64,000 bases of DNA, from contig OZ361258.1 of NCBI GenBank assembly GCA_977018835.1, positions 1,178,001 to 1,242,000 on the forward strand, in the 5' to 3' direction. Numbering within the stretch: position 1 is the first letter of the stretch; each line of letters opens with the position of its first letter. A program made the position numbers and the translations under genes. The stretch comes from Minutocellus sp. GHC0000111 (taxonomy: Eukaryota). This document shows positions 1 to 7,600 of the stretch, in pieces. The notes under the pieces are model-generated. The model had not been told where the DNA came from. It did not search any database and saw only the letters and a list, made by a program, of their open reading frames with translations.

Positions 1-2487
1 CGGGATGGACGACGGCGTTAGCAAAGTGTTGGAGGTTTGGTAAAGGCGAGAAAGCTGCCATGTTGGCCACGTGGTGGGTGCTACGACGAGATGATGGCCG
101 TGGGGGAGGGTTCCGATGTGGAATGTACCCTCGCTGACGGTATGATCGTCGTCGAGGTGGTTTGGCGGTCGATGGTTTGGACTTGCTTGTCGATTTTGCT
201 GGAGCTGGTAATGTTGGAGTGGTATCGATCGTTGGAGACTTGCGTTTACGTTGCCGACGGGAGGTGGGGGCATTGGAACTTTGATTGGATGTTACGACGG
301 TTGCATCGTCGTCATGATTATCATCATCGTCGCCGTTGGGCTCGTCTACTGCAGCCAAAGGATTGTAGTAGTTGGAAGAAACTGACGAGCGAGGTGGCGC
401 GTTGGATCGACGTGATCGACGGCTTTTAGTGGTGGCTGCATCACATGTGGAGGATTTTGCCACCCTCGGAGGTTGCTGGGGCTGAGGCAACGGAGCGTTG
501 GGGTTGGAGACAAGGTGACGGCCTACTTCAGTCTCGTTCATCTCTTCTACGTCGTCGTCCTCGTATTTGATTTTGTAGTACTTATGCTTCTTGTCAAATG
601 CAACGACTCTACCCTTGTAATTGCGATCTCCAAACACTTTGGCGACGATGGTACCGAGGCGGAATCGTTGGGAGTCGTCATCGTTCTCCAGCACCCTCGG
701 AGCTGCGGTTGTCTGCATCGTCTCATCAGAGGCGGAGGTGGCAGATTCTGCTGGGGTCGCGCTGTTGAAAATCTCGGAGAGCTTTTCTAAAGCTTGACGA
801 TGCTCGTCTCGAAGGGGAGCAAGGGGTGCCGCTGGATGTGGATTCTGTAGAGCGTGCAGGAGTTCATGAGCTGCGACTATTGCTGCATCGGCCGACGACG
901 TTTTGGGTACCGGAATCATTTGGGGAGCCAGACGAGTGTGTTACCAGTGCGTTCCGCCCGAGTTTCCTCAATCCAAACCTTGTAACACCGGTAGTGTTCC
1001 ATGGCTGGACCGACATAGTACCCATCAACGCCATGCGGGGACCAAGAGCCGCGTGCCGAGGGCATCTCGTGAAAGATGACCTTGCATCCGAGGGGGCCGA
1101 GAGGCGTGCGATTGAAATCAAAGCCGCCATTGAGTTGCTCGTACGCTGATAGTCGAGGGTTGACTCGGGATGCTCTCAGGAAATTGAGGGTCATTACCGC
1201 CTGCTCCAGCAATTTATCCCACAAGATGAGGGGAAAGTCGGGATCGGTACCACAGAGAATCGCAATGAAATGATTCTTAAAGGTTCGAATGGCTCGTTCG
1301 GCCGCATTTCGGCGGTGGGAGTGCGTTGGGGTCAATTGAAAATCTACATCCTTTTCTTCCATGAACTCCTTCAGCTCTCGACTCACTTCATTATCCAATC
1401 GTTGCAATTTTGGGCGAAATCCTCGCTTGGAGAGGTATTCGAAAATAGTTTGGTGCGCTCGGCGCATTTCCGTTCCCGATCGGCTTTTCATTGGTTCGGC
1501 CAAGATGCTGTTGGAGTCATAGTCATAGACGACCATTATGTACTGGTGGCCAGAAATAGACGATGCCAAGAAACGGCCGGGCTGATCTGAGAAGATCTGG
1601 CCCGTTATGTCATGACAATCAGCAAAGACATAGTTGGTGCGCTGTTGGTGTTGTGCCGGGTGGAGATCCTGCTCGGTTTCGTCCACCCCAGGGAGAGATT
1701 TTGGCGTAGCCATCGACCGTTTGGGCTTGGTCGACCTGATGTTCTTGCGCTGCTGGTCTAAGTGACCTTTAATCATCGGTATCGACTGTGGCATGTGCTT
1801 ACGTACAAGCTTTGATGTGAGGCCTGGCCAAGATCTATAAAATCCCGCATCGATTGCTTTGCACCAGGTAGATAGCTGAGGACTGCCAGCGCACCAATGT
1901 AAAAAGGCTACACGTTCCGGAACCGTCTCCTGGGCAATTGCGGCGTTGGCAGCATGTTGGATGACGTTGGGGCCGGGGAGCGGCGACATGATGGGCGAGC
2001 AATTAAGATCTACCATCCACAATTTCGTTGAGGGGTCTCGTTTACCTTGCAAAATGACGGTATTGTCCTTGGCGATGACTACCGAATCCTTATCGAAAGT
2101 GGCAATGCATCCATCGTCACACAGCTGCCCAATCGATAGGAGCGATGATGCCATATTATTGAAAATATAGGCCTTGCTAGCCGATGGGGAAACCCCAGGG
2201 AGGCGAAGCGTGGCCTCGTGGGTGTTCGTCATTGTGCTGTTATCCGGAAGGGTGACGCTGATAGGAATTGCTGTCTGTTGGACGTTGAAAATTGGGCCAT
2301 CGTACGATAGGTGTTGGGGCTTCTGGACAAAATGTCCCGTCGTTCCAGCATCTGCTGCGAGGACGATTGGCTCTTGAGTTGGAGGTTTGCTTTTTGACGT
2401 AAGAAAAGCTAACGAAGGCGGGGAGGAGGTGGATTCAGATGTGCTATCCTCTATTTTACACTGATTAATATCCACCGTCCCTCCCGC
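1..2487 (-). CDS. pol: Copia pol (protease, integrase, Tudor-like domain, linker to RT), with a 1-nt frameshift near 916
   Basis: ORF 916..2475 carries the PR and IN motifs. After AAA-TG-ATT at ~916 another frame reads IPVPKTSSADAAIVAAHELLHALQNP... and stays open to the window edge. Confidence 0.88.
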
Positions 2488-3758
2488 TCAGTTACGACGC
2501 GAGCTACCACCGCAAGGATTGCACTTGGTGGCGTTATCAACGTGGTTGGGCCCTTTGCAAGTGCATTCAAAGCTGGGGTGGTTGGACGAATAGCCGCACG
2601 TGTGACAATAATGGCCTCTGGGGAGGATCGACTGCAGTTCCCGCTTCTCCTGGCGGTTGAGGTTACGACCTTGGCCTGGGAAGTGGCCGGCGCCGTTCTG
2701 CTGGCCACCGCCGCGGTAGCCTCCACTGCCACCAGCATGGTTGCGTCCCTCACGCAGAACGCGGTTCTCGGCCTTGAGTGAAGCTATTTCTTGGCGAAGT
2801 TTGGCAATGGCATCATCCTTCTCGTTGCTCTTTTTGGCGAGGTTCGCCATCATGGCTTGGTTGGTCTTGAGGGCTTCGGTGGTGTCAGCCAAAAGGAGAT
2901 CGGCTCGAGAAAGAAATGGATCGTCCGAGGCCGATGAGGCCAAATTCGCGCCATGACATCCTGCCGCTTCGGTGGTGGTGTTGGCCATCTTCTTATCACA
3001 CCAATCGCGGAAGTCCGACTGCATGTTGGCCCACGTGCGTTCGGCCTCCGGTCTGTCGTCCCAATCCTCGCATGCCTTCTTTGCCAATGAGAACCTGCGC
3101 ACGGAGCGGCAGAACTTGGAGACCTTTTGCTTGTTGGTGAAGGGTTCGCCGGCCGTTTCAAACACCTTGAAGACTTTGTTGAACATGGCGATGTGGGTGT
3201 CGATGGGTCCCCCGTCGTGCTGCTTCTCTAATTCCTCCTTCTCAGTCTCGTTGAATTTCAAGTAGCGATCGGCAATGCTGTCGATGATTTGGCGGATGGT
3301 GACTGGCTGGAAACCGAGCATGTCATCTTCGAGATGATTGATGTAGACGGCGTCGATCGAGTCGAGGAGGAGATTCTTGAGCGCCGTGTTGACTTGCTCG
3401 CACAAGTTGCAGTGGCCCTTTTCGATGCAATGTCCCCGGATTGCACGATCGCGTTGGTCTAGATTGGCCACGGCGGGAGTGGTGGGGCTGGGGCCAGGAT
3501 TTGCCGGAGGCACATGTGGTCGGCCGTTACTTTTGGTGGTGTGTTCGGCATCGCTGACGACGAGGCCCAAATGGCCGAGGTTGTGGTCATTGCACCCTGC
3601 TGGAATGCTGGCCGCCGCTTGTTGAAGTTCCTTGAGAGCGCTTTGGCAACACGCTCGCGTTGGGGAGGTTGTCCTGGGTCATTCACACGTGTGATTAACT
3701 TGGTGGGGAGAATCGGCGCTGCGCCGAGAGGTTGGCCAAAAACTGCGTCGGGATTCAT
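2488..3758 (-). pseudogene. gag: Copia gag, degenerate (frameshift near 3640, apparent Y->C/H substitutions)
   Basis: ATG at 3758 (MNPDAVFG..) shifts frame into LKELQQAAASIPAG..LGHLGLVV. The C-terminus has a zinc-knuckle-like YCHTCG...HPSFEC....H..NAT..NPCGGS. Confidence 0.8.
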
Positions 3759-4042
3759 GCTGGTGTTTCAGTCAGCGAAGACAGGCAGCACGGCGGTGTT
3801 GCTGCGAGAGACGTGTGATCGACAGAAGGTTCGATCCAGAGAAGTGTGATCGATTGGATGGGTCGATCTGGTCAGGACTTTCGGGGAAGGGATTGGATCG
3901 TCGCTCCAACATTGTCGAAAGAAACGGTCGTTTTGGCCGATTGAAGATGTGTCGGTTTTTCTTGCGTGACGAGTGAGTTGAGAACCCAAGACAAACCGGT
4001 GTGAGGTGCGAACCGAAATGGGGCGAGCACGGGTGGAAAAGA

Positions 4043-4253
4043 TGTATCACGTAGGTCTGCTAAGAGGTCCTAAAGCTAAGCTAGATAGATATAGCTAGTA
4101 GAGGTTAATAGGACCTACGTAGATGAAAAATGGGCCATCGGAGATGTCGTTGGCCCATGGATCAACGGTCAGGAGAGGGCACTGAGTCAGTGGTCTGATC
4201 ACCGTACGTACCGTACGTATGTATACGTACGTACGTATCCCATGGTATCAACA
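4043..4253 (-). repeat. Putative 5' LTR (inner boundary uncertain)
   Basis: Minus strand begins TGTTGA at 4253. The segment is TA-rich (TACGTA/TAGCTA runs), and composition changes sharply near 4045. The partner LTR is not in the window. Confidence 0.55.
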
Positions 4254-4492
4254 AGGATGTGCAAGGGCAAGTCCACCATTATATTTGGTGTTGGAGACAC
4301 ATGCTTCGACGACGGCCCAGCAGAAAGAAGTACATAGAGCAAGTATGTAGATAAGCGATTGTAGATCCGAGCACTGCTCTATGTAATAAGCTATCACCAG
4401 AAACTGCAGCTTGGTCGTTGTGATCTTGCAATCTCCTGCTCGCTCGTTCGATAAAAAGACACCCGGAAGCAAGAAACCGTTGCAAGCTGTCT

Positions 4493-4566
4493 CTGTTCAT
4501 AGCCCTGGCCGACCACTAGGCCACTATCCGGATGATGGCCTAGTGGTCGGCCAGGGCTATGAACAG
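4493..4566. repeat. Perfect 31-bp inverted repeat (hairpin/palindrome) with 12-nt loop
   Basis: CTGTTCATAGCCCTGGCCGACCACTAGGCCA (4493-4523) is the exact reverse complement of 4536-4566. Confidence 0.97.
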
Positions 4567-4668: not shown

Positions 4669-7600
4669 ATGTCTTCGGATGGTGCCAGATGTCGCAGCAG
4701 CGGCGGTGGCCATTCATCATTTGACGAGGAGCAGCAACGCCGCCAAGCCGGGACATCACCATCATCATCGTATCTTTTTCAAGGTGGCCGTACTGGAGGA
4801 CGAAGATCATCGTTTCCAGAAGAAGATACCGTTGAAGGCCGTGGCCGACGACGACAAAGCAGATCCAAATCTCCAGGAAGATACCATCGCCCCCACCATT
4901 TCGGCAGCCGCGATGAGCAATCTTCGAGGCCGAACCGCAGCCGCAGCCAGAGCTATGACCAATACGCCTCCTCGTCCCGCAATCCACACAACTACTACTC
5001 GAACCGCAGCCATGACGAGCAATTGTCGGGCAGCAGCCGAAGCTACGGTCGGCACTCCAACAAGCGCGTCAGTTCGGACCGAAGCCGTGATGAACAATCG
5101 TCGGAGCAGGGCCGCAGCCGTAACCGCGATCGACACCCCTCGGCGCGGAAGAGCAGCAGCGGCGGCGGCAGTAGTGGGCTAGACCACGAACACTCAACAG
5201 CGGGGCAAAGATATCGGCCCCAGGCATCTCCATGTGGTCCGCCTGCACTGCATGGTGGACACGGTCACGTACACCGTTCTACGCCATACGCGTCGGCCGG
5301 CACAACCTCCGCCTCGGCCGTATCTTCGTCCCAACGCACTGCTTCGGCCACTTTGGCACGTTTAGCGTCAGCTCCCACAAGGCACAATCTTCACGATCCT
5401 CTCGTATCACTACAACGGAATGGCGTCAGGACTGATATGATGGCCTCCATGGGCGTCGATGCTAATAGCCGTCTACTGCGATTGATGATTAACGTGAGTT
5501 TAATTTGTTTGTTCACTTCCTACTGCGTAGCGAGCAACGTGGTGTCTTCACATCATTGCGCATGCGCATTGCTTTCAAGCAAAAGTTCTAATGTCCATGT
5601 CCGGCTTGCTCTTCTTTTTCTTCTCCACAGATCGGTAATCCCTCGATAATCAATGCTGTTTTGAATTGGGGTTCTCAGGAGTCGTCGGCGGGGGCTTTTC
5701 GTGAAAACAGCAACATTCCTGGACTCATTGCAACTCGGCTCAGAGATGCTGAAAAGCATGGGTGCCGCAAATCCCTCCCGGCGTCGATGAGAATCTCATG
5801 GCCTCCTTGGGCATCGATGATAACTACAGGATACTGGGCTTCATGGCGAGGGTGAGTTTCATTGGTTTTCTGACTACCTGCATTATTGCATTACTGTTTC
5901 TTTCGACCCAAAATACTAATGTCCGGATTGCCCTTCTTTCTTTTCGTTCCCCCATAGATCGGTAATCCCTCAATGATCAACGCTGTTTTGGGTTGTGTTT
6001 CTCGGGATGTCTCGGTGGGAGTTATACGAGGAGACAACTTTGCTGGCATCATTATCGCTCGGCTCAGCAAGGAGGCTGAACGAATGGCAGTGAGTCATAG
6101 TACCAGTGGGCCCAAGATTGTGTCTTCCGACGCGGACAAGCAAGACTCGTTTGTTCTTCCCAGCGACAAGAGAAATGCCTCTGACAAAGCCGAATGCAAT
6201 GATGACTGTCCGTGTGGAGATCAACCCCCGCCCCAATCCAAAGCTTCTGCTAGTACAGTTACCGCCAAAGACGTAGCTAAGGCCGAAAAGACCCTGGAAT
6301 ATCTCGCTATGGATGGGCGTGATTTGGCCAAGGATGGCAAGTATATTGGCGTGCTCTTTGCCTCGGATCCCGGTGCAGTTATGACGGCGTTGTCAAATTT
6401 GCTAAAAGCCAGCGGTGGCGACGAGAAGAAAATCAACGCCTTGCTCTCCGCGGTACGTCTCTTCTTCCGTACGGCCGTGAAGAATTCAGATGAGAGAGCA
6501 AAGCTCCACGTCGATGCATTCGAGGCGAGCGAGGATGTGCGAGATTGCATGGAGAGCATCTGCCGTGATAACCCAAGCCTCGCCCCGTCATTCCAATCCT
6601 TTGGAGACAAACTGAAGGGCATGAAAGGTGTCTCAGCTCTCTTCATCGATGCTACGTTCAAGCCTATGTTTACCAAGATACTTCAGAAGGAAGAAAAACG
6701 CCGTGCCATCGAGCTTCGTCGTGCGGAGGAGATCGAACTTCAGCGCCTCGAAGCTGAACGTCAGGCTGCTGAGATGGAACGTCAGCGCCTCGAAGCTCAA
6801 CGCCGCGAGCAAGAGGCCAATGAGCGTCGGCGGGTGGAAGCTAAGAAACGAAAGGAGCTCAAGGAGCAGCGTATTGCAGATGAGGCTGCTCCCACAGAGG
6901 AACGCCGGGCCAAATGGACGAATGCGGCACAGAAGAAGCTACAAATGGTGGAGGAGGAGCTGACTATGCTCGAGACCGAGGAGGAAAAGTCCGTCGTTGC
7001 CATCAAGAAGCTGTCGGATATTCTAGACGTCATGGAGGAAGTTGCTAGTTCTGGTATTTTCGATCGGGAGCTGTTGGTGGGCACTAAGGTCCAACCTCTA
7101 TTCAGGAAAGTTGCGAAACGCCATTTGGATAGGAACTCCGATATTGGTGTTCGAGCGCTTGCCGTTTATGAGAAGATGATTGGCAATGAAAAGCAGAAGT
7201 CCGCCCTCGCTGTTGTGTCAAAGCCCAAGGCTGCCAAGCGTTCCTCGACCAAGTCAGCAGCACCATTGATCGAGAAGAGCAGTGGAGCAATGAATAGTCC
7301 AACCAAAAAGCGCCCTAGATCTCGGAAGCTACAGATATCTCAGCCCTCTTTGCCTCAGAAGGAGGAGAAATCGACCAAGAAGAGGAGCAAGATGGTTCAA
7401 TCTAATAGCAGCAGTACCGGTATTGCCGCTGCTGATCCTACCTCCAAGGCGCGTCCCACCTCCACTGGGAACAAGGGAAAGAAGAGGAGCGCGTCGGAGA
7501 GCAGCGATGAAAACAGCAGCAAGAAGAAGAGGAAGACGAACGACGAGAAGGAGAAGCACGCGTATGGCAAGGCGATGGATGAAGAAACCAAGCACCTTCA

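Follow-up and report, generated by a model that had tools for sequence, protein, structure and literature searches.

Likely programmed readthrough of a conserved stop codon between gag and pol in diatom CoDi-like Ty1/copia elements

Comparison of a retrotransposon copy with its relatives suggests that pol of CoDi-like Ty1/copia elements is likely expressed by programmed readthrough of a conserved stop codon, and that this readthrough is likely stimulated by the base following the stop and by a predicted hairpin about six bases downstream. A layout in which gag and pol share a frame and are separated by one stop is common to the window (the whole stretch of 64,000 nucleotides that was analysed) and 33 other families. 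The conserved signal at this junction is real and probably functional.

The retrotransposon copy in the window

On the minus strand of the window, the region from about 4253 to 1 belongs to a CoDi-like Ty1/copia element of the diatom type and represents a decayed copy, with the following parts.

4058..4253, minus strand: 5´ LTR of about 196 bp (TG...CA), with putative boundaries
2491..3758, minus strand: gag, with the ATG at 3758; two extra bases near 3634 shift the frame in the window copy
2542..2610, minus strand: Cys/His knuckle-like motif at the Gag end (YCHTCG...H...C...H)
1..2487, minus strand: pol, with protease, integrase and a Tudor-like insert (521-655); RT/RNase H lie beyond the window end
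2344..2352, minus strand: protease active-site motif, DAG in the window copy and DTG in relatives; D46 is invariant

Loose ends of the run contigs compared with the window cluster at 4253-4255 and 4058-4061, and on the minus strand TG opens at 4253 and CA closes at 4058. A second LTR copy was not found within the window, the 3´ LTR being located beyond it. Just outside the element, at 4493-4566, there is a 74-base near-perfect inverted repeat.

The pol order of Ty1/copia elements is supported by the protease motif followed by the integrase in the window (weak DDE/SH3 matches), the RT itself being located outside. The window pol frame has 1043 relatives of 917-2615 aa, often 1200-1400 aa, many of which carry the copia RT family PF07727, among them the full-length relatives 77-86% identical to the window. 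All named relatives come from diatoms (P. tricornutum, Fragilaria crotonensis, Fistulifera solaris and Arcocellulus cornucervis); the distant families come from metagenome loci. No relatives of the element were found among the viral contigs searched. On the gag side, the intact relative P0121 (426 aa) is 93% identical to the window gag. Of the 150 best Gag relatives, 115 contain the knuckle motif, at a distance of 33-93 residues from the C-terminus; among 72 junction sequences it is located upstream of the stop in 66.

The pol frame of the window copy is broken near 918, where one base is missing. Both this indel and the one in gag were absent from all four runs of one comparison, and a copy variant is present at 2349, within the protease active-site motif. 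Directly after the integrase, at 521-655 on the minus strand, the copy contains a Tudor-like domain (PF21743, E 1.4e-12), which among the 120 pol relatives listed is found in the four closest only. For CoDi-A elements a chromodomain has been reported at the matching position (PMC2774666), and the insert is possibly a chromatin-targeting module.

Differences between copies centre on TpA. In the window region 700-4300, 22 of 34 transitions (from 40 differences listed of 70) make or break a TpA and six further ones affect CA/TG sites of that type, whereas positions at which a TpA can be made or broken amount to 20% of all positions. Since Tyr codons that distant relatives conserve are replaced by Cys or His codons in the copies, the direction of mutation is likely TA to TG/CA. 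This pattern resembles the TpA-only T/A to C/G hypermutation described for viral inserts of Bigelowiella natans (bioRxiv 10.64898/2026.01.13.699255); here it would act on a retrotransposon of a probable diatom.

The gag-pol junction

On the minus strand the junction reads CGT AAC TGA GCG GGA GGG ACG GTG GAT ATT, and the following features can be distinguished.

2488..2490, minus strand: gag stop UGA, the candidate readthrough codon; the next base is G
2479..2487, minus strand: 6-base spacer and conserved GGG codon (stop-N6-GGG), with GGG at 2481-2479
2470..2487, minus strand: predicted outer stem, 5´ arm; conserved core from 2481
2435..2464, minus strand: predicted inner stem and variable loop; 2464-2458 pairs with 2442-2435
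2418..2434, minus strand: predicted outer stem, 3´ arm, C-rich and encoding Ser-Ser-Pro-Pro

The stop-to-stop frames 3678-2488 (396 aa, gag) and 2487-916 (523 aa, pol) adjoin each other without a change of frame, and the first in-frame ATG of pol is codon 86, located 40 codons further on than the protease Asp (codon 46). The initial annotation had described a gag-UGA-pol junction, with pol in the gag frame and without a nearby ATG, and both descriptions are correct. The pairing it proposed for the outer stem, 2487-2470 with 2434-2418, is likewise confirmed in its details (mismatch A2482/C2423, wobble G2481-U2424, bulge at C2477), as is the extension by the inner stem.

The view that a strong stem-loop follows the stop had to be modified. 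Folding of 2500-2400 gives -32.7 kcal/mol (z -2.46), which was equalled by 3 of 200 shuffles; against synonymous recoding the z-score is -2.0, equalled by 1 of 100. The window fold alone is a moderate signal, and the weight comes from the relatives. Furthermore, the conserved part of the helix begins not at the stop itself but six bases past it, at the GGG codon (2481-2479), so that the first five pairs adjoining the stop lie outside it. Copy variants of the junction region are mostly located at 2439-2460. At 2460/2440 and 2459/2441, close copies differ in a way that looks compensatory for the inner stem; these changes were left uncounted, since the sites are TpA and mutate in either arm regardless.

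Conservation of the stop in copies and distant families

The window copy is decayed, with two frameshifts and DAG instead of DTG in the protease, and a chance nonsense mutation is therefore a real rival to a functional stop. No other letter at 2488-2490 was listed in the eight runs compared, seven of which cover the stop (X13 does not); variants were listed from 1 in 100 in two runs (499 and 421 contigs) and only from 30 in 100 in the other comparison. Where Gag relatives (53-93% identity) reach the knuckle in frame, their last residue corresponds to that of the window gag. The best 150 of 1353 Gag matches, from a 50% library with 1.84 billion representatives, are all at most 518 aa long, and none of these 150 contains a protease motif. 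Of the 120 long pol relatives listed, only P0026, P0059, P0078 and probably P0085 carry upstream sequence. Three of these (P0026, P0059 and P0085) are diatom gene models, whereas P0078, like P0183, has a Trp at the junction.

For more distant families, one metagenome scan yielded 79 loci, of which 71 had a protease match and an upstream stop; 65 of these also had the Gag knuckle. Left out before counting were four loci without a usable protease match, four that end before any stop and six without a visible knuckle. In 58 of the 65 scorable loci (window not counted) the knuckle, exactly one in-frame stop and the protease are located in one frame. In five of the seven exceptions (L007, L019, L034, L065 and L079) the junction motif is kept, with indels or an additional stop in the vicinity. 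Another, L030, has TAT, a sense codon, in place of the stop. When clustered at 60%, the sequences formed 35 families including the window, a number reduced to 34 by merging L071 into the L006 family by hand. The representatives of the 34 families are 17-59% identical to each other (median 35%), and the two other frames are closed at the junction in 33 and 34 of them.

The conservation of stop and frame that the initial annotation proposed to look for is thus present among copies as well as distant families. Because no variant was listed in the runs and 58 of 65 loci have the knuckle, one in-frame stop and the protease, the window stop is not copy damage. The sense codons could be taken as support for a nonsense mutation, namely TAT in L030 and Trp in P0078 and P0183; however, gag of L030 is broken and its sister L068 has TAG. 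With the stop invariant in the runs, Gag relatives ending at the same residue and one in-frame stop in the 34 families, a nonsense mutation of the decayed copy has practically no chance of being correct, and we reject it. Selenocysteine insertion or a changed host code was rejected too: UAG and UGA alternate at the site, and Trp in the element is encoded by TGG.

A -1 frameshift layout of gag and pol was not found in the window and the 58 loci, all of which are in frame 0. When frames and slippery sites were inspected, the seventh exception, L078, was the sole possible -1 case among the 65 scorable loci. Here (4752-5080) gag ends with TAG, followed by a GGGAAAAC run, and pol is located in the -1 frame with stops between. 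L078 may be a decayed copy or a frameshifting member.

Other routes to pol

Pol could be made separately, by reinitiation or internal initiation just past the stop at an AUG or a near-cognate codon (in the window, ACG at codon 4 and GUG at codon 5), possibly from a promoter at the junction. In close relatives, gene callers place the start at the GTG, and a weak junction promoter has been described for Tca2 (Forbes 2007, PMC2194720). In 23 of the 34 families, however, there is no AUG before the protease Asp, and 17 have neither AUG nor GUG; where present, these codons are found at scattered positions. Because so many families lack an AUG, reinitiation is disfavoured. Separate initiation would moreover require neither frame 0 nor the avoidance of UAA nor the tie between UAG and G, and we regard it as very unlikely.

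Removal of the stop by splicing is used in Drosophila copia and in plant copia elements. A rare splice might do the same here; UAG-G resembles a 3´ splice site as well. The diatom gene models P0026, P0181, P0059 and P0184 join gag to pol and skip the stop region, and 15 of the 34 families, among them the window, contain GT..AG pairs that would take out the stop in frame. Such a pair is lacking in the other 19, the positions are not shared between families, and UAG-G itself is used in none of the nine UAG families. The skip of the P. tricornutum type covers only about 10 codons (P0026 compared with L013). In addition, RNA contigs of X6, X12, X7 and X10 span the stop without a splice joint, although contigs can miss rare forms; the initial annotation had named an intron as an observation that would count against readthrough, and no such intron is seen in these contigs. 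Since splice sites are not shared and the four RNA contigs are unspliced over the stop, splicing is disfavoured and in our view highly improbable. The gene models that drop the codons round the stop probably contain false introns.

Hopping or sliding of the ribosome over the stop without decoding cannot be told from readthrough by the frame alone (Atkins 2016). No shared pairs of matched take-off and landing codons were found round the stop, and the same passage of that review knows of no natural case. Such a bypass is extremely improbable.

Stop codon, next base and the GGG codon

Over the 34 families the stop is UGA in 24, UAG in nine and UAA in one. All nine UAG codons are followed by G, whereas UGA is followed by C in 15 of 24 families, by A in four, by U in four and by G in one, which is the window (Fisher p 2.6e-7 for the link between stop type and next base). 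UGA-C (Type II) and UAG-G (Type III) are known viral readthrough classes (Firth 2011, PMC3159437), and 24 of the 34 families have one of these two leaky contexts. The UGA-G context of the window is the rare one; the same source lists a UGA-G exception for enamoviruses.

UAG is scattered on a quick tree, with seven changes, of which at least three are forced by well-supported branches, and shuffles gave values as low in 103 of 500 cases. The link between stop and next base would therefore not go back to one inherited event, as far as this weak tree allows, which contains four long branches, some of them probably from frameshifted translations.

Downstream of the stop the motif stop-N6-GGG is kept in 26 of 34 families. 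Where codon +3 encodes Gly it is GGG in 26 of 28 cases, compared to 53 of 462 Gly codons elsewhere in pol (p 1e-22), and no Gly codon is used less often in the pol genes than GGG. Two loci deviate: L023 (146-271) has UAA-C and AAG at codon +3 and still contains a GC stem, and in L060 (1557-1691) the G run is one codon nearer to the stop.

A predicted hairpin at a fixed distance from the stop

Folds of single sequences place the GGG codon at the base of a long bulged hairpin, in which a G-rich arm is complementary to a C-rich arm 53-130 bases further on, with a loop of widely varying length. A helix of at least 12 pairs on the GGG was predicted for 30 of 34 junctions; among 178 further GGG sites of these loci, 26 had one. 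In 32 of the 34 families the helix is at a fixed distance from the stop, whatever the distance to the protease. When arms were swapped between families, the own partner gave -20.3 and a foreign partner -16.6 kcal/mol. The own partner was among the top three in 14 of 34 families (p 4e-7), while at six control positions this was the case for 2-6 of 30-34.

Compensatory changes, which the initial annotation had also proposed to look for, were observed in one subset of 21 sequences, whereas the consensus of the whole set was empty. For this subset RNAalifold predicts a core of eight pairs, six of them with two-sided changes; the core is 95% paired compared to 83% in shuffles (0 of 500), a test inflated by relatedness, and 42-65% when the arms are slid. 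At pair 13:144, 11 sequences have G-C and eight have A-U, an amino-acid change on one side being matched on the other. Three further pairs beyond the core are only partly kept. Neighbourhood in the tree and a common 3´ motif served to select the subset, a choice that favours this result; the window is not part of the subset. RNAalifold gave no consensus structure on all 34 families and none on a 13-sequence group. In the window's own group two of 12 pairs covary (covariation term +0.11).

Folding energy alone is below z -2 in four of 34 junctions, with a mean of -1.33 compared to -0.26 to -0.62 elsewhere. In 15 pairs of relatives, 62 of the 292 scored predicted pairs are broken, 12 are compensated and 19 are kept by one change, a count without control; many of the broken pairs adjoin the stop or are located in the upper stem. 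A search of Rfam returned no family match apart from one at chance level (E 1.9). The folding used covers nested structures only; because the predicted helices span 53-130 bases, a compact pseudoknot of the MuLV type is unlikely in these families.

It might also be possible that readthrough relies on the stop and the next bases alone and that the hairpin is kept for RNA packaging, dimerisation or reverse transcription. Sequence cannot assign a function to the stem, its loop varies between 53 and 130 bases, and the structure of Tca2 did not drive readthrough (Forbes 2007, PMC2194720). However, the constant position relative to the stop is as in viral readthrough stems (PMC3159437), and a hairpin with a different job is unlikely. 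We favour a hairpin that would contribute to readthrough.

Discussion

In the mechanism we propose, most ribosomes would terminate at the stop and release Gag. The helix, located at the mRNA entry channel, would slow the ribosomes, and with the help of helix and next base the stop might be decoded by a near-cognate tRNA, so that a few per cent of ribosomes would insert an amino acid and continue to Gag-Pol. Gag-Pol would then be present at a low ratio to Gag, be packaged and be cleaved by its own protease. The need for such a low Gag-Pol to Gag ratio has been stated previously (Forbes 2007, PMC2194720).

A gag-stop-pol arrangement is itself already known from MuLV, Tca2 and Tj1-like elements, and the stop has been noted in passing in diatom elements. 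The initial annotation had contrasted the junction with copia elements, which it took to use typically one ORF, splicing or frameshifting; this contrast has to be restricted, since gag-UGA-pol with a 3´ structure is known from the copia element Tca2 of Candida albicans. Like the window element, Tca2 has an in-frame gag-UGA-pol, a purine-rich spacer and a predicted 3´ structure (PMC2194720). It is, however, a single element from a fungus, its spacer has eight bases and its structure is a pseudoknot, and 300 nt of its junction gave no readthrough in S. cerevisiae reporters (Forbes 2007, PMC2194720). Here, in contrast, 34 families show interchange of UGA and UAG, a 6-base spacer and a long predicted hairpin with comparative support.

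Moloney MuLV shares the in-frame order Gag-stop-protease, the UAG-G context (found in nine families here) and a structure that encodes the start of pol, but it uses a compact pseudoknot after eight bases instead of the long bulged hairpin predicted here (PMC3159437, PMC13517186). The Type II signals of tobraviruses resemble the junction in UGA-C, a short spacer and a bulged stem of about a dozen pairs that closes a long variable loop (Firth 2011, PMC3159437). They belong to RNA-virus replicases and have spacers of 7-12 bases and CGG or CUA after the stop, whereas the signal described here is located in a retrotransposon, with a 6-base spacer and only C favoured after the stop. The elements Tj1, Tosmo1-3 and Tcry1 of fission yeasts are LTR retrotransposons with a conserved in-frame gag-UGA-pol and UGA-CU; they are Gypsy-type, and the available text gives the signal as an 8-base motif and describes no 3´ stem (bioRxiv 10.1101/2022.12.06.519325). 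For the diatom CoDi elements, gag and pol have been reported to be separated by at most one stop or frameshift, with no mechanism or signal given in the sections at hand (Maumus 2009, PMC2806351). We found no description of readthrough or of a clade-wide signal in diatom copia elements in the literature searched; Repbase-type annotations, which were outside this search, may mention the stop.

Going beyond the single element, we lean towards the view that a large marine copia branch (more than 1000 pol clusters) uses one structure-stimulated cassette, made up of stop-N6-GGG and a long bulged hairpin, in which UGA-C and the gammaretrovirus-type UAG-G have repeatedly replaced each other under the same stem. 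This would be the first readthrough system common to a clade of copia elements and, for diatoms, the first case of programmed readthrough; as a natural series it would show that the two viral classes are interchangeable. Tca2, the one studied copia case of gag-stop-pol, failed in reporters; the dozens of diverged families presented here supply conserved bases and covarying pairs.

For the annotation of these genomes, a stop at the junction is a sign of an intact element and not of decay, and gene models that skip it by a tiny intron are probably wrong. Close relatives are found in the tractable diatom P. tricornutum, making the question of Pol expression directly testable. If readthrough is confirmed, these elements would provide a stramenopile case of programmed readthrough and a link between two viral readthrough classes.
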